In this document: positions 15,132 through 45,318 of the stretch, piece by piece | Position numbering within the stretch: position 1 is the stretch's first letter | Layout: each line of letters starts with the position of its first letter | Assembly: GCF_003334255.1 (NCBI RefSeq) | Contig: NZ_QOWU01000023.1 | Direction: 5' to 3' (one strand) | DNA: 64,000 bases | Origin: Escherichia coli | Lineage (GTDB): Bacteria; Pseudomonadota; Gammaproteobacteria; Enterobacterales; Enterobacteriaceae | Notes under the pieces: model-generated | Database searches by the model: none | Told to the model about the DNA's origin: nothing | Seen by the model: the letters and a program-made list of their open reading frames with translations, nothing else | Made by a program: the position numbers and the translations under genes

Positions 15132-15831
15132 TGTTTTTTGGACTCCCTCATTATAATTACTGGTATTAACCAGCATGTGTAATCCCGGATTGGGACCCTG
15201 CACAGGCTCGGAGACTTTCTGCTGTCAGGTTACTTTATCGTTACGTATTACTATCACCGACTTTATTTATTCTGGTGATTCAGACGATCACCTTATGTCG
15301 ATTCGTACTGTGTCTCCCCTGTCGAGACACATTATTCTTTCGCGACGCTCTTTAATTGTTAATTATTCTCATTACCAATAAAGAATCGTCTGGCGGTTGC
15401 CCGGAAAGTACCAAATGCGGTTCTTACTCGCCAATACATTTTGCAAAATTGTTAAGCAATTCTCTTTTATTGACCGTATCAGAATCTATAGCTTGCATCC
15501 ATGCCTTAACAAACATCTTTCAATTCAATCAAATAGAGATTGGCTAAGCATGTCTATCTTTTCTGATTACAGTTCCAGTAGTGAAATGCACAATAATTTA
15601 ACAATTGATTATTATTTAGCACTTTCCTCTACCAAAGGCAGTGGAATTACTAATATCATTTCAATTATTCTTCAGCAAGCCCAGGATTATGATGTGGCGA
15701 AAATAACATGATGGTGAGGAGAAGCAGTTAAGGAAATCCTTATAACTAACTGTAATTTGAGAAGAATATTTTTACCTATTCCTTTTGCTTTTGATAACTG
15801 CGCGGGAACAAAGTAAAAATAATGACGAAGT

Positions 15832-36059: not shown

Positions 36060-37451
36060 TTATTTTTTAGAATGCCGACCATATACCGCCCAGGTAATCA
36101 CTACGCAGGCGATATAGAAAATCAAAAATACCTTCATTGCGCCGACTGGCGAACCCGTTAATGCCAGCGAGCTACCAAACGCTTTCGGGATAAAGAAGCC
36201 ACCAATCGCGCCAATCGCAGAGATGAAACCCAGCGCCGCCGCCGTGTCGGTTGCCGCTTCACGCATCGCACGTTCGTCAGAACCCCCTTCTGCTTTCACG
36301 CGATCCATTGTCAGTTTACGGAAGATCACTGAAATCATCTGGAAAGTGGAACCACTACCCAGCCCAGCTGTCAGGAACAGCGCCAGGAAGACCGCGAAGA
36401 ACGCCATGAAGCTTCCGCCCTGCCCGTCAGTCGGTAAGGTCAGGAACAGCAGGCCGCTGAAAATCGCCATCAGAATAAAGTTCACCAGCGTGACACGAGT
36501 TCCGCCCAGACGGTCAGATAATGCACCACCTGCAGAACGCGCCAGCGCACCAATAAACGGCCCGAAGAAAGCGTATTGCAGAATCTGAACATCCGGGAAC
36601 TGCGTTTTTGACAGCATTGCAAAGCCCGCGGAGAAGCCGATGAAGGAGCCGAAGGTTGCCAGATACAGCAGGCTCATAATCCACAGATGACCCCGTTTGA
36701 GTACCGGCAACTGCTCCTTGATGGAGGCTTTCGAGGTAGCAAGATCGTTCATGCCAAACCACGCCGCAATGGTGAAGATGGCAAGGAACGGCACCCATAT
36801 CCAGGACGCATTCGCCAGATACAGCTCAGTCCCATCCGGCTGTTTGACGCCCTGGCTACCAAATACTGCGAAAATCGACAGTGATACCACCAGCGGAGCA
36901 ACCAACTGCATGACGCTGACGCCCATGTTTCCCAGACCACCATTCAGACCCAGCGCGCCACCCTGCTTCTGTTTCGGAAAGAAGAAGCTGATGTTTGCCA
37001 TACTGGATGCGAAGTTCGCGCCAGCAAAGCCGCATAGCAGAGAGATGATGATGAAGACGCTATAAGGCGTGGAGGTATCCTGCACGGCAAAACCCAGCCA
37101 GACGCAAGGAATAATCAGAATACCGGTGCTGAACGCCGTCCAGCGACGACCACCGAAGATAGGAACCATAAAGGAGTATGGAACACGTAATAACGCGCCA
37201 GAAACCGAAGGCAGCGCAGTCAACATAAATAGCTGATCGGTCGTAAAATTAAAGCCGACTTTCGGTAGGTTCACCGCAACAGCGCTGAACAACATCCATA
37301 CGCAAAACGCCAGCAGCAGACAGGGAACGGAAATCCACAGGTTGCGGCTGGCAATACGTTGACCGCGTTGTTGCCAGAACGCAGGATCTTCCGGTCGCCA
37401 ATCTGTAATGACAGCTCCAGTAGCCCTTTCGGGGGCGGATGAGTGACTCAT
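36060..37451 (-). CDS. narK: Nitrate/nitrite transporter NarK (MFS)
   Basis: Polytopic membrane ORF; start set to the second Met (MSHSSAPERATG..., 463 aa). Confidence 0.9.
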   Translation of the reverse strand: MSHSSAPERATGAVITDWRPEDPAFWQQRGQRIASRNLWISVPCLLLAFCVWMLFSAVAVNLPKVGFNFTTDQLFMLTALPSVSGALLRVPYSFMVPIFGGRRWTAFSTGILIIPCVWLGFAVQDTSTPYSVFIIISLLCGFAGANFASSMANISFFFPKQKQGGALGLNGGLGNMGVSVMQLVAPLVVSLSIFAVFGSQGVKQPDGTELYLANASWIWVPFLAIFTIAAWFGMNDLATSKASIKEQLPVLKRGHLWIMSLLYLATFGSFIGFSAGFAMLSKTQFPDVQILQYAFFGPFIGALARSAGGALSDRLGGTRVTLVNFILMAIFSGLLFLTLPTDGQGGSFMAFFAVFLALFLTAGLGSGSTFQMISVIFRKLTMDRVKAEGGSDERAMREAATDTAAALGFISAIGAIGGFFIPKAFGSSLALTGSPVGAMKVFLIFYIACVVITWAVYGRHSKK

Positions 37452-37510
37452 AGACACCTCTGATACTCGTTTCGATGTCTGCCACCTTAGTGTCTGTAGC
37501 TAAAGGCAAT

Positions 37511-37562
37511 TTGATGTAAATCAAACGATAAGATAACTTTATCTATCATTGATATTTATCAT
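37511..37562 (-). promoter_or_regulatory. Two FNR boxes of the narK promoter
   Basis: TTGATgtaaATCAA at 37511-37524 and TTGATatttATCAT at 37549-37562, centred 38 bp apart, consistent with the -41.5/-79.5 arrangement; NarL-like heptamers (tacccat) are nearby. Confidence 0.75.
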
Positions 37563-37789
37563 TACCCATAGTGAGTACAGTGACTTCATAAAAATTATGA
37601 GATTTTTCACGGTGCTGTAAAATCCCTACCCTTACCGATGTAAAGCGACTAACCACACGGCAAATAAGGAGTAACTCTTTCCGGGTATGGGTATACTTCA
37701 GCCAATAGCCGAGAATACTGCCATTCCAGAATGTATCGTCACATTCATTAAGGTTATTGCTCATTTAAAGCCTGAAGGAAGAGGTTTAC

Positions 37790-39586
37790 ATGCTTAAACG
37801 TTGTCTCTCTCCGCTCACCCTGGTTAATCAGGTTGCGCTTATTGTGTTGCTTTCTACTGCTATTGGACTGGCAGGGATGGCGGTTTCTGGCTGGCTGGTG
37901 CAAGGCGTTCAGGGCAGCGCCCATGCGATCAACAAAGCGGGATCGCTGCGCATGCAAAGTTACCGTCTGTTGGCGGCAGTGCCATTAAGCGAGAAAGACA
38001 AGCCCTTAATTAAAGAGATGGAACAAACGGCATTTAGCGCCGAGTTGACTCGAGCAGCAGAACGAGACGGACAACTGGCGCAATTACAGGGTTTACAAGA
38101 TTACTGGCGTAATGAACTGATCCCTGCGCTGATGCGTGCACAAAACCGAGAAACGGTGTCAGCGGATGTCAGCCAGTTTGTTGCCGGGCTTGATCAACTG
38201 GTATCTGGTTTTGACCGCACCACGGAAATGCGCATCGAGACAGTGGTACTGGTCCATCGGGTAATGGCGGTATTTATGGCACTTTTACTGGTGTTCACTA
38301 TTATCTGGTTGCGGGCGCGACTGCTACAACCGTGGCGGCAACTGCTGGCAATGGCGAGTGCCGTCAGTCATCGCGATTTTACCCAACGCGCAAACATCAG
38401 CGGGCGCAACGAAATGGCGATGCTTGGAACTGCGTTGAACAATATGTCTGCAGAACTGGCCGAAAGTTATGCCGTACTTGAGCAGCGGGTTCAGGAGAAA
38501 ACCGCCGGGCTGGAGCATAAAAATCAGATCCTCTCTTTTTTATGGCAGGCTAACCGCCGTTTGCATTCCCGCGCCCCGCTGTGTGAACGCCTGTCACCTG
38601 TACTCAACGGCTTACAGAATTTAACCCTGCTACGTGATATCGAATTGCGGGTGTATGACACTGATGATGAAGAGAATCATCAGGAGTTTACCTGCCAGCC
38701 AGATATGACTTGTGATGATAAAGGCTGCCAGCTCTGCCCGCGCGGCGTATTACCCGTTGGTGATCGCGGCACGACCCTGAAGTGGCGGCTGGCTGACTCT
38801 CATACGCAGTACGGTATTTTGCTGGCGACCCTGCCGCAGGGGCGTCATCTTAGCCATGATCAACAACAACTGGTGGATACCCTGGTTGAACAACTCACCG
38901 CCACGCTGGCGCTGGATCGCCATCAGGAACGTCAGCAACAGTTGATCGTGATGGAAGAGCGTGCCACCATTGCGCGCGAACTGCATGATTCTATTGCCCA
39001 ATCTCTCTCTTGCATGAAGATGCAGGTGAGTTGTTTACAGATGCAGGGCGATGCGCTGCCAGAAAGCAGCCGCGAACTGTTAAGTCAGATCCGTAACGAA
39101 CTGAATGCATCCTGGGCGCAGTTGCGTGAATTGCTCACCACATTCCGCTTGCAGCTCACCGAGCCTGGATTACGTCCGGCGCTGGAGGCGAGTTGCGAAG
39201 AGTACAGCGCCAAATTTGGCTTCCCGGTGAAGCTGGATTATCAATTGCCGCCTCGCCTGGTGCCTTCGCATCAGGCAATCCACTTGTTGCAAATTGCCCG
39301 TGAGGCATTAAGTAACGCCCTCAAACATTCGCAAGCGAGTGAAGTCGTGGTGACGGTGGCGCAAAACGATAATCAGGTCAAACTGACCGTCCAGGATAAC
39401 GGCTGCGGCGTGCCTGAAAATGCCATCCGCAGCAATCACTACGGCATGATAATAATGCGCGATCGTGCGCAAAGTTTACGAGGCGATTGCCGCGTCCGCC
39501 GTCGTGAATCAGGTGGCACCGAAGTGGTGGTCACCTTTATTCCCGAAAAAACTTTCACAGACGTCCAAGGAGATACCCATGAGTAA
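37790..39586 (+). CDS. narX: Nitrate/nitrite sensor histidine kinase NarX
   Basis: 598-aa ORF with an N-terminal transmembrane and periplasmic sensor region and C-terminal histidine-kinase region; divergent from narK. Confidence 0.95.
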
Positions 39587-40229
39587 TCAGGAACCGGCTA
39601 CTATCCTGCTGATTGACGATCACCCGATGCTGCGAACTGGCGTAAAACAGCTTATCAGTATGGCACCAGATATCACCGTGGTTGGCGAAGCGAGTAATGG
39701 CGAACAGGGTATTGAACTGGCGGAGTCTCTTGATCCCGATCTGATCCTGTTAGATCTCAATATGCCCGGCATGAACGGTCTGGAAACGCTGGATAAACTG
39801 CGCGAAAAGTCCCTCTCAGGGCGCATTGTGGTATTCAGCGTCTCTAACCATGAAGAAGATGTGGTCACCGCACTGAAACGCGGCGCGGATGGCTATCTGT
39901 TAAAAGATATGGAACCGGAAGATCTGCTGAAAGCATTGCATCAGGCAGCTGCTGGCGAAATGGTATTAAGCGAAGCATTAACGCCTGTTCTGGCCGCCAG
40001 CTTGCGCGCTAACCGTGCCACTACTGAGCGCGATGTTAACCAGTTAACCCCACGCGAGCGCGATATTCTCAAGCTGATTGCCCAGGGTTTGCCGAACAAG
40101 ATGATTGCCCGCCGCCTGGATATCACCGAAAGCACAGTAAAAGTGCACGTCAAGCACATGCTGAAGAAAATGAAGCTCAAGTCTCGCGTGGAAGCAGCGG
40201 TATGGGTGCATCAGGAGCGCATTTTCTGA
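39579..40229 (+). CDS. narL: Nitrate/nitrite response regulator NarL
   Basis: Start set to [19 protein letters not shown] (216 aa); overlaps the narX 3' end by 8 nt. Confidence 0.95.
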
Positions 40230-41624
40230 TTACGGTTCCCAGCGCAGTTCGTCGTTTGACAATGCATCGAACGGTTCGACAAGCGTTAGCGTGATCTCAT
40301 TGGAGGAGACACGCTGCCCCTGGTTATCTTCCACCACCACAGACAATCGCCAGTGATTGCTTGCCCCTTCCCCGTTCTGCCAGTCAGGCATGATCAGCGT
40401 CCAGCCCTCCGCGCTGTTGGCTTGTGCGCCCGGCGTCAAACTTAATATCTGCGTATCGCCCTGCCAAATCAGTTGCCGAATACCGTAACGACTGCGGATT
40501 TGTAATTTCAGCGGCACTGTTTCGCCAGGTTTTAGATCCCACGGCGGTGTCGCCAGAAACACCGTTAACGTTTTTCGCTGTCGGTACTCAAGAGTCGGTA
40601 GATTATTTCGCTGCGGATTGTCATAGCGACTACCACGTAACGACTGACTTTCGGCAACCTCGCCCGCAGAAAGTTGTTTTTTGAGCGGTACACCAAAGCG
40701 GTAATTAAGATTCAGCCCGAGGTTATTTTGATTTTCGCCACTTTCACCCTGTTTATGCTGGGCCGTCACAGTGACTAATGGCACAGGGGTGTAATTTAAT
40801 CCCAGACTCAACGCGACGGGATTGTGATAACCCGTACCAGAGTTAAACAAATCAACACGATCACCAAAATACTGTTCTAGGCTGACACTGGTATTGAGGT
40901 GTTGATAGAACGGCATGCGCATCCGAGCTGTCAGGTCGTACCCGCGCGCCATCCGTTGTTCCTGCGTGGCTGTCTGTTCATGCCATGCAGCAAACGGCTG
41001 ATAAAAGTTTGCCGATAATCGCAAATATTCGCCCCACGCTTCGGCACCAAAGCCCGCTCGCTGAAGATTTTCGTCCAGCAAGTTGTCATAAAAAGTGTTA
41101 TAACCCACCAGCCAGTTGCCGCGCGCCCAGCGTTGCCCAACGCCCACATTGCTCACCAACCCATTATCCTGCTGAGTAAGACCAAGCTGGCTCCAGGTGA
41201 GATAACGATCATTATCTTGTAACGGCACAAACCAGCTTCCACGACTGCCGGTGAAATGTCCTTCGTTATCCACTTTGACGTCAACACTGGCATTTCCCCA
41301 CGGTGATAGCCAGGACTCTACGTGCTGATTAACCTGTTGACTAAGCGCGTCGCGGACTTTTCCCAATGCGAAAGCTTTTGCCTGCTCGCCAGTATCCAGC
41401 CCGTTATCATTCATACTGGTTTCGCCGAAATCTTTCACAATTTCAGCAAAGTGTTTTTCCCCATCATGATTTTCGGGAGCCATGCCTAAATCCGGCAGAC
41501 CATCATTGTTATTATCAAAGGGATTTGCCGCTTTTTGCTCGAAGGTAGATTGTGCGTTAGCTGTACCGCCTGCTACAAGCAAGAGTAAATAAAACGGGAT
41601 AATGCGAGGAACGAAACGGCTCAA
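40230..41624 (-). CDS. ychO: Invasin/intimin-family outer membrane protein YchO
   Basis: 464-aa ORF with a signal peptide; synteny. Its stop codon abuts the narL stop. Confidence 0.8.
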   Translation of the reverse strand: MSRFVPRIIPFYLLLLVAGGTANAQSTFEQKAANPFDNNNDGLPDLGMAPENHDGEKHFAEIVKDFGETSMNDNGLDTGEQAKAFALGKVRDALSQQVNQHVESWLSPWGNASVDVKVDNEGHFTGSRGSWFVPLQDNDRYLTWSQLGLTQQDNGLVSNVGVGQRWARGNWLVGYNTFYDNLLDENLQRAGFGAEAWGEYLRLSANFYQPFAAWHEQTATQEQRMARGYDLTARMRMPFYQHLNTSVSLEQYFGDRVDLFNSGTGYHNPVALSLGLNYTPVPLVTVTAQHKQGESGENQNNLGLNLNYRFGVPLKKQLSAGEVAESQSLRGSRYDNPQRNNLPTLEYRQRKTLTVFLATPPWDLKPGETVPLKLQIRSRYGIRQLIWQGDTQILSLTPGAQANSAEGWTLIMPDWQNGEGASNHWRLSVVVEDNQGQRVSSNEITLTLVEPFDALSNDELRWEP

Positions 41625-41646
41625 AACGTCGGTAACTTCCGGTAAT

Positions 41647-41686
<40 letters not shown>

Positions 41687-41687
41687 A

Positions 41688-41791
<104 letters not shown>

Positions 41792-41808
41792 GAATACAGG
41801 AGTAAATA

Positions 41809-42162
41809 ATGCAAAAAATCGTGATCGTTGCCAATGGCGCACCTTACGGGAGCGAATCCTTGTTTAACAGCTTGCGGCTGGCCATTGCGTTACGAGAGCA
41901 GGAGAGCAATCTGGATCTGCGTCTGTTCCTCATGTCTGATGCGGTCACAGCCGGGTTGCGCGGGCAAAAACCAGGGGAAGGCTACAACATTCAGCAAATG
42001 CTGGAGATCCTTACCGCTCAGAATGTACCGGTGAAATTGTGCAAAACCTGTACCGACGGGCGCGGGATTAGTACACTTCCTCTGATTGATGGGGTGGAAA
42101 TCGGTACTCTTGTGGAACTGGCGCAATGGACGCTGTCAGCCGATAAAGTGCTCACATTTTAA
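41809..42162 (+). CDS. ychN: DsrE/DsrF-like family protein YchN
   Basis: 117-aa ORF; synteny. Confidence 0.85.
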   Translation: MQKIVIVANGAPYGSESLFNSLRLAIALREQESNLDLRLFLMSDAVTAGLRGQKPGEGYNIQQMLEILTAQNVPVKLCKTCTDGRGISTLPLIDGVEIGTLVELAQWTLSADKVLTF

Positions 42163-42169
42163 TGTTTGA

Positions 42170-42190
42170 GGGGGCGTCTGACGCCCCACT
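42170..42190. terminator. Hairpin between convergent ychN and chaC
   Basis: gggggcgtc-tgac-gccccac. Confidence 0.5.
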
Positions 42191-42205
42191 ATGCGGGAAG
42201 TTTAC

Positions 42206-42901
42206 TCAGGCGAATCCCGGACGTAACACACCATCCGGAAAATTCTCCGCCAGCAGTTTTTTTACCGATACCAGCAAATCATTCAGCCCATCGTCCTGCA
42301 TTCCCAGTTTGATAAGCTCCTGTTCCAGTGAAAACAGGTATTGTGCGTTGGTTCCCAGCGGACCGCTCGCCGCCGCAATCAACGGCGCGATGACCTGAGC
42401 GCGAGTATCAGATTCATATTCTGGATGTCGCGGGTCCATAATAAACACAATGGCGTTTACTGTGCGTCCATCATCAAGATCAAGCTGACACCAGGTTGGC
42501 AGATAACAGCCGGTAATCATCTCTCGCTTCCACAACAGGGTTAGTTCCTGCTCCAGCGTCTCTTCTGGCAGTCGATAGGCGACGCCTGTGGTGCGTCCGC
42601 CCTCTTTCAGTGCAAGCATCCGTCCCGGCTGGTGCGCAGTCCCGCGCCCGGCGGTCAGGCGCAGGCAAAATGCGCGATGCCATCCAACCAGTGTACCGGT
42701 GCACGATTCGGTAAACTCCAGTGCCGGATTCCACATCAACGATCCATAGCCGAAGATCCACACCGGTCCCTCATCAGGTCGACAAGCCAGCGTCGCCGCC
42801 AGCGAAGCCGCCCGTTGTTCTGCTGACCATAAGAGTGATTCTTCAATGGCACCAAATGCCGTTTTACAATCGGCATTCATCAAGAAATCACGCGTTATCA
42901 C
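42206..42901 (-). CDS. chaC: ChaC-family gamma-glutamylcyclotransferase
   Basis: Start trimmed to the GTG giving (M)ITRDFLMNADCK... (231 aa); the 243-aa ORF is probably 5'-extended. Confidence 0.75.
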   Translation of the reverse strand: MITRDFLMNADCKTAFGAIEESLLWSAEQRAASLAATLACRPDEGPVWIFGYGSLMWNPALEFTESCTGTLVGWHRAFCLRLTAGRGTAHQPGRMLALKEGGRTTGVAYRLPEETLEQELTLLWKREMITGCYLPTWCQLDLDDGRTVNAIVFIMDPRHPEYESDTRAQVIAPLIAAASGPLGTNAQYLFSLEQELIKLGMQDDGLNDLLVSVKKLLAENFPDGVLRPGFA

Positions 42902-44659: not shown

Positions 44660-45062
44660 CAGTTATATCTCCTCCGATGACGGTAATCGGGGGAGATAAT
44701 ATAAATTCCTGCTTATTGTATTTCTTCATACTACCTGGACAGGTCGTTAATCAGAATTGCGAGCCTGTACCACACCCTGCACGAAACCACTGCAACAGCT
44801 GTTGAAAAGCCGGAATGTACTCTTCATTGCAAACATTTCAGGGATGAAGTGAAGATGAATTGCGACGTAGTATCCACACCAAGCCGGCGTTATCCGGTGA
44901 GGCGCAATGTTGCGGGGCTTTATCCCTGGTGGCATTGGTTGCTGGAAAGAGAAAACCCCCGCACGTTGAGAGGTAAAACCTGACAACAAAACGGGGGCTA
45001 ATCTTGAAACCAGACACTTCAAGAATAGCCGCAAAATGTTGTCATTACAACAAGGCGGCTAT

Positions 45063-45170
45063 ATGACGCTCGCGCAGTTTGCCATGATTTTCTGGCACGA
45101 CCTGGCAGCACCGATCCTGGCGGGAATTATTACCGCAGCGATTGTCAGCTGGTGGCGTAACCGGAAGTAA
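45063..45170 (+). CDS. ldr: Ldr-family type I toxin peptide (35 aa)
   Basis: ATG at 45063 to TAA at 45168-45170 translates MTLAQFAMIFWHDLAAPILAGIITAAIVSWWRNRK, which matches the LdrA/B/C toxins as I recall them. It is too short to appear in the ORF track. Confidence 0.8.
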   Translation: MTLAQFAMIFWHDLAAPILAGIITAAIVSWWRNRK

Positions 45171-45318
45171 GGTGAAAACGGGCGTCAGGCTGCCGTGATG
45201 GCAATATGCGCCCGAAACCGGCCGCAGGGGTAACAGCCTGCGGCCTTTTTTGTATCCGGCACCCATGAAAAAAGTCTTAACGCAGAACGCTAATACTTTA
45301 TTTTTCAAGCAAAAAAGA

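Follow-up and report, generated by a model that had tools for sequence, protein, structure and literature searches.

How can two convergent genes end their transcripts when no DNA separates their stop codons, and do the resulting messages interfere with one another? The narL-ychO locus of Escherichia coli raises this question. It lies in a 64,000-nt stretch of DNA, referred to here as the window, and positions are those of the window unless MG1655 coordinates are given. A window position p corresponds to MG1655 position 1275179 + (40229 - p), in reverse orientation. The original prediction, made from the DNA letters, held that the two stop codons abut, that no room is left for separate terminators, and that the transcripts must therefore overlap at their 3' ends, with possible interference between the narXL and ychO messages. 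The essential facts that bear on it are already known from public annotation and two published genome-wide datasets.

Anatomy of the junction

The sequence at 40224-40235 is TTC TGA followed directly by TTA CGG. The intergenic distance is 0 nt, and the two coding sequences touch without overlapping. The predicted abutment of the narL TGA and the complement of the ychO stop is confirmed by the sequence, by the open reading frames and by the RefSeq annotation of MG1655, in which ychO occupies 1273784..1275178 (+) and narL 1275179..1275829 (-). PGAP annotations of other E. coli strains agree, and the junction block is 99.9% identical to that of MG1655. With a gap of 0 nt, full-length mRNAs of the two genes cannot both stop short of the opposite gene. 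The coordinates of the genes and of the elements discussed below are collected in Table 1.

The ends of both coding sequences are credible. Residues 2-216 of NarL match the solved NarL chains 1A04 and 1RNL over their full length. In YchO, the Pfam family IAT_beta matches residues 64-341. It is the only family that Pfam recognizes in the protein; a Pfam search of the C-terminal ~120 residues gave no match, and residues ~342-464 (40233-40600, minus strand) are presumed to be the passenger. At the other end of narL, the narX stop and the narL start overlap by 8 nt (39579-39586), a typical junction of a translationally coupled operon.

Table 1. Genes and transcript features at the narL-ychO junction (window coordinates).
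Feature	Position	Strand	Remarks	Basis
narX CDS	37790..39586	+	First gene of the narXL operon	ORF list, RefSeq annotation
narL CDS	39579..40229	+	216 aa; stop TGA at 40227-40229	ORF list, RefSeq
First ~90 nt of ychO-sense RNA past the stop	40139..40229	-	Antisense to the narL 3' end; possible Rho entry	
Weak hairpin over the narL stop	40210..40231	+	-5.7 kcal/mol in narL sense, -3.8 kcal/mol in ychO sense	
Junction TGA/TTA	40227..40232	.	Two opposite-strand stop codons, 0 nt between	Sequence read
ychO stop codon	40230-40232	-	TAA, complement of TTA	ORF list
ychO CDS	40230..41624	-	464 aa; TTG start; inverse autotransporter	ORF list, RefSeq, Pfam
narXL untranslated 3' tail	40230..40447	+	Antisense to the last ~72 ychO codons	Rho peak of PMC7815308, mapped
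C-rich, G-poor tract in narXL-sense RNA	40295..40411	+	Candidate rut	C/G in 78-nt windows

Conservation of the spacer-less junction

Within the species the arrangement is nearly invariant. Of 5426 complete E. coli genomes, 5421 carry the 2.8-kb locus, and 5422 contain, uninterrupted and with at least 95% identity, a 201-nt query sequence that has the junction at its center. A YchO-based scan with one genome per species returned 72 loci. Two of these were left out, their contigs ending too early for narL to be present. In all of the other 70 Enterobacteriaceae species narL is the immediate, convergent neighbor of ychO. The genera represented include Escherichia, Citrobacter, Enterobacter, Leclercia, Lelliottia, Kosakonia, Phytobacter, Cedecea, Buttiauxella and Yokenella, and the scan also took in Salmonella arizonae and diarizonae. 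This peptide-pattern scan of contigs returned no ychO locus from Klebsiella and, from Salmonella, only the arizonae and diarizonae representatives; in Klebsiella and the other salmonellae ychO may be absent, too divergent, or missed by the peptide patterns.

Across the 70 species the gap between narL and ychO ranges from -4 to +28 nt, with a median of 1. Ten loci have a gap of -4 nt, the two stops sharing TTAG or TTAA, 21 have a gap of 0 nt, 27 a gap of 1-5 nt, and 12 a gap of 7-28 nt. The C-terminus of YchO can be aligned to within a few residues across the 70 species, and its stop position drifts between them. These comparisons indicate that the near-absence of a spacer is an ancestral, conserved trait rather than chance, and that exactly 0 nt is one of several interchangeable junction states and is not itself conserved. 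A drift of this size is what would be expected if the junction requires no sequence element.

The neighborhood is not generally this compact. Twelve convergent pairs of coding sequences lie in the corresponding region of MG1655, and the other 11 are separated by 39-281 nt, which leaves narL-ychO as the sole pair below 39 nt. For a nearby convergent pair, chaC-ychN, the Escherichia loci have gaps of 40-55 nt and those of other genera gaps of 535-600 nt. The larger distance outside Escherichia suggests the presence of a further small gene or element between chaC and ychN.

Absence of an intrinsic terminator

Both strands were also scanned and folded for terminators embedded in the coding sequences themselves. 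A terminator consensus scan of 37400-42300 returned 8 sites, all weak, against 5.0 +/- 2.5 expected. Folds of 221 nt across the junction had z-scores of -0.03 and +0.13 on the two strands. In a hairpin-plus-U scan extending 500 nt past either stop, the best candidates reached -6 to -10.7 kcal/mol with 4 U. The same scan applied to MG1655 as a positive control recovered hairpins of -14 to -23.5 kcal/mol at tonB-yciA, oppF-yciU, galU-hns, yciY-kch and ompW-yciE. Intrinsic terminators inside either coding sequence were therefore rejected, the three analyses having given only background-level candidates. An Rfam search of 39300-41900 returned no match at E <= 1. The prediction that there is no room for separate terminators holds: the gap is 0 nt, and none was detected nearby on either strand.

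Each of the five control pairs has a single strong hairpin that can be read on both strands. Three other convergent pairs in the neighborhood, chaC-ychN, ychH-dauA and dhaR-ycgV, gave no strong hairpin-plus-U terminator in the same scan; the best candidates were -6 to -10 kcal/mol, and chaC-ychN had none. The ychH-dauA pair is likewise in the published excludome list (PMC12288877). For ychN, Adams et al. (2021, PMC7815308) record a 3' end at MG1655 1273216; the hairpin that precedes it, GGGGCGTC...GACGCCCC, has no U tract.

Rho termination of the narXL transcript

Published data show how the narXL transcript ends. In Supplementary file 2 of Adams et al. (2021, eLife; PMC7815308), a region of Rho termination antisense to ychO is listed with its peak at MG1655 1274961 (-). 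This maps to 40447, 218 nt beyond the narL stop; the call compares 800-nt windows under one condition (LB, OD 0.5), and the position is thus approximate. In their DirectRNA-seq data, 101 reads lie upstream and 6 downstream of 1274961 without bicyclomycin, and 649 upstream and 408 downstream in its presence; the Rho score given is 10.6, at a significance of 5e-14 (PMC7815308). None of the curated Term-seq 3' ends in that study is assigned to narL, narX or ychO. This fits ends that are terminated by Rho and, according to the authors, trimmed by exonucleases. The SMRT-Cappable-seq supplements have no entry for narL or ychO.

The RNA that precedes the Rho peak is rich in C and poor in G. The ratio of C to G peaks at 2.29 (40308-40385); among all 78-nt windows on both strands of the 64 kb, this value exceeds the 99th percentile. 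The C-rich tract starts 65 nt past the narL stop, just upstream of the Rho peak, and this distance after the departure of the ribosome matches what a Rho loading site requires. In the narXL direction, read-through that rises with bicyclomycin, about 80 nt of C-rich, G-poor RNA and the lack of an intrinsic terminator are thus found together.

A similar trend, although weaker, is seen across species. Among 71 loci the median C/G is 1.38 at +60 to +120 and 1.56 at +120 to +180, versus about 1.0-1.2 elsewhere. The ratio of G to C at third positions (G3/C3) is raised in the last 120 codons of ychO. Shuffling synonymous codons within ychO nonetheless reproduces the ratio: the median over the 71 loci is 1.48 observed and 1.44 expected, the values for the window sequence are 1.73 and 1.80, and only 3 of the 71 loci fall below 0.05. 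On this ground, the idea that a rut site is under selection was rejected. The C-rich tract is explained by the amino acid composition of YchO and shows no sign of selection at the RNA level.

The end of the ychO transcript

The opposite transcript probably ends by Rho as well, inside narL antisense. The C/G ratio of the first ~90 nt of ychO-sense RNA past the stop is modest, 1.6. Adams et al. report no Rho region antisense to narL or narX (PMC7815308), an absence that is uninformative given the low expression of ychO in their data; ychO is reported to be expressed under host-like or DMEM conditions.

Extent of the transcript overlap

Three published observations bear on the predicted overlap of the 3' ends, and all agree with it. 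First, ExcludonFinder (NAR 2025, PMC12288877) lists ychO-narL in its Table 1 as one of 165 convergent excludons of MG1655, defined as transcription units whose coverage overlaps in at least 50% of 58 RNA-seq samples, a condition that a 0-nt gap brings about almost automatically once both genes are transcribed. Second, the Rho termination region lies 218 nt into ychO. Third, antisense reads and p19-captured double-stranded RNA are reported by Huang et al. (2020, PMC7373196, Table S1), where ychO is named ychP. The genes are adjacent on opposite strands with their 3' ends facing, as the open reading frames and RefSeq show, and antisense reads cover both.

In the total RNA of Huang et al., sense and antisense reads over ychO are 8.6 and 5.5 RPM in the wild type, 9.9 and 10.7 in rnc-14, and 6.4 and 9.8 in rnc-38; over narL they are 72.5 and 1.6, 76.9 and 0.9, and 27.8 and 2.1, respectively, all being values from single samples and, since the strand column of their Table S1c looks scrambled in some rows, carrying uncertain sense and antisense labels. 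The p19-captured RNA amounts to 26-87 RPM over ychO and 2-10 RPM over narL. Antisense RNA over narL amounts to about 2% of narL mRNA, and over ychO it roughly equals the mRNA. The overlap is real but lopsided, and consists mainly of narXL running into ychO. Judged from these abundances, any interference would mainly run one way, from narXL onto ychO.

A model for the junction

Together these features suggest that narL-ychO is most likely a compact tail-to-tail arrangement in which the transcript ends are set by Rho inside the neighboring coding sequences, with no terminator element between the genes taking part, and the overlap is a tolerated by-product that involves no dedicated regulatory device. 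The ribosome would leave the narXL mRNA at the narL TGA, and RNA polymerase would run on into ychO antisense, making naked, C-rich and G-poor RNA 65-180 nt past the stop. Rho would load at this tract and release the narXL transcript ~100-220 nt, or somewhat more, inside ychO. The weakly expressed ychO message would run into narL antisense and probably be ended by Rho there. The outcome would be a narXL tail about as abundant as the ychO mRNA and a ychO tail at a few percent of the narL mRNA, and a small amount of double-stranded RNA would form at the 3' overlap.

Alternative explanations

One alternative is a convergent excludon that has a function: selection would keep the genes without a spacer, and narXL transcription would damp ychO or the reverse. 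Collisions between polymerases, and cutting of the 3' duplex by RNase III, would then couple nitrate sensing to adhesin expression. Apart from the inclusion of the pair in the MG1655 excludome (PMC12288877), such a device would fit the p19-captured RNA over ychO (PMC7373196) and the ychO antisense reads, which about double in the two rnc mutants, from 5.5 to 10.7 and 9.8 RPM (PMC7373196). The strongest argument for a function is the tight convergence in 70 of 70 species; next to a neighboring convergent pair whose gap ranges between 40 and 600 nt, it may be a sign that the overlap is selected. General synteny together with no need for a spacer would explain this conservation equally well, and both the gap and the YchO C-terminus drift among species. 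The sense reads of ychO show no consistent change in the rnc mutants (8.6, 9.9 and 6.4 RPM). Both genes are weakly expressed, so that collisions should be rare. The coverage rule behind the excludome listing is close to automatic at a 0-nt gap, and codon shuffling gave no indication, at synonymous sites, that the C-rich tract is selected. We consider a selected excludon unlikely.

A related possibility is that the junction, spacer-less throughout the history of the Enterobacteriaceae, is a selected link that acts in cis through antisense RNA, the Rho-limited narXL tail over the last ~70 codons of ychO tuning the amount of the YchO adhesin. The tuning would then follow narXL transcription or Rho activity. 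This also appears improbable. If such a link existed, the phenotypes of ychO deletions would partly reflect altered narXL 3' ends. More generally, a regulatory overlap would connect nitrate sensing to an adhesin, and nothing yet points there.

A bidirectional terminator at the junction, based on a hairpin or driven by collision, would confine the overlap of the two transcripts to a short, defined stretch. Such a mechanism is known from E. coli: SEnd-seq has described collision and hairpin-based bidirectional termination at convergent pairs such as ynaJ-uspE. The convergent orientation of the genes fits this idea, as does a small hairpin that spans the narL stop. This hairpin is weak on both strands, lacks U and A tracts, and shows no conservation across 71 junctions in RNAalifold, where the energies were -2.8 and -0.5 kcal/mol and column shuffles gave -0.56 +/- 0.96; a conserved junction hairpin was rejected as a candidate because these energies are no better than those of the shuffles. 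No stable GC-rich hairpin with flanking A and U tracts was found, nor were sharp 3' ends formed independently of Rho on the two strands; at the junction itself, Term-seq records no 3' end. Read-through into ychO is sensitive to bicyclomycin, whereas the SEnd-seq class is described as Rho-independent, and the low expression of both genes should make head-on collisions infrequent. A terminator of this kind is very improbable.

The last alternative, that one of the two proteins really ends elsewhere than at its annotated stop and the abutment is only apparent, is effectively refuted already: the ychO annotation has been revised over time, an older ychP model beginning 141 nt later, but the revision touched only the start and the stop is identical in both versions, solved structures end NarL at residue 216, and both reading frames are uninterrupted up to the junction in 70 species.

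Comparison with known systems

Among the systems to which a compact, Rho-ended junction may be compared is the class of Rho-terminated untranslated 3' tails and antisense RNAs described by Adams et al. (PMC7815308). The likeness extends to bicyclomycin-sensitive read-through, a site more than 50 nt beyond the stop, a C-rich and G-poor tract upstream, and the lack of a sharp Term-seq 3' end. There is no material difference, narL-ychO being one row of the published table, and 51.5% of the regions of Rho termination in that study are antisense to genes (PMC7815308). With convergent excludons, a concept of Sesto and Cossart that ExcludonFinder mapped in E. coli MG1655 (PMC12288877), the junction shares opposite-strand neighbors whose transcription units overlap at their 3' ends. 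Excludons are defined by mutually exclusive expression, and narL-ychO is placed among them by its overlap. The overlap here comes from the missing spacer and Rho termination, with no long antisense transcript dedicated to it.

Bidirectional intrinsic terminators, such as those of tonB-yciA and oppF-yciU in the same window, resemble the junction in that they end two converging transcripts in little space. The neighboring pairs of this type have spacers of 39-143 nt and two-strand hairpins of -14 to -23.5 kcal/mol, and narL-ychO has neither. Short convergent overlaps of coding sequences that share TTAG or TTAA stop tetranucleotides are known from surveys of bacterial genomes. The 4-nt shared stops in 10 of the 70 species are of this kind, and the 0-nt junction of E. 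coli is a neighboring variant in which the genes only touch.

Practical consequences

Deleting or 3'-tagging either gene alters the 3' untranslated tail of the other. The deletion of ychO (40233-41624) made in an APEC strain by Pilatti et al. (2016, PMC4787180) is an example. Its reverse homology arm ends exactly at the narL TGA, so the cassette replaces the narXL 3' tail and the Rho termination region. The 426-gene "pleiotropic" transcriptome of this mutant was interpreted without considering narXL (PMC4787180). The locus also illustrates, in a clean natural case, how Rho lets two genes share a border without a terminator, in an arrangement that is stable across about 70 species.

Neighboring features

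The window differs from MG1655 in several places (~15616-15619, ~44783-45253, 28047-28704 and 1-1652). The IS5 copy that lies between ychE and oppA in MG1655 is missing, the ldr/rdl toxin-antitoxin repeats are one fewer, and the tyrT-tyrV-rttR region has extra or rearranged repeats. Beyond ompW, the first ~1.65 kb of the window fails to align to MG1655.

Upstream of ychO, the sequence TCGGTACAGGTTTTGCA (42040-42056, minus strand) lies within ychN (41809-42162) and corresponds to IA11, one of the sigma-54 sites mapped by ChIP-seq (Bonocora et al. 2015, PMC4591121). The site is antisense inside ychN and points to ychO, ~416 nt upstream of the TTG start. IA11 may be a sigma-54-dependent promoter for ychO.
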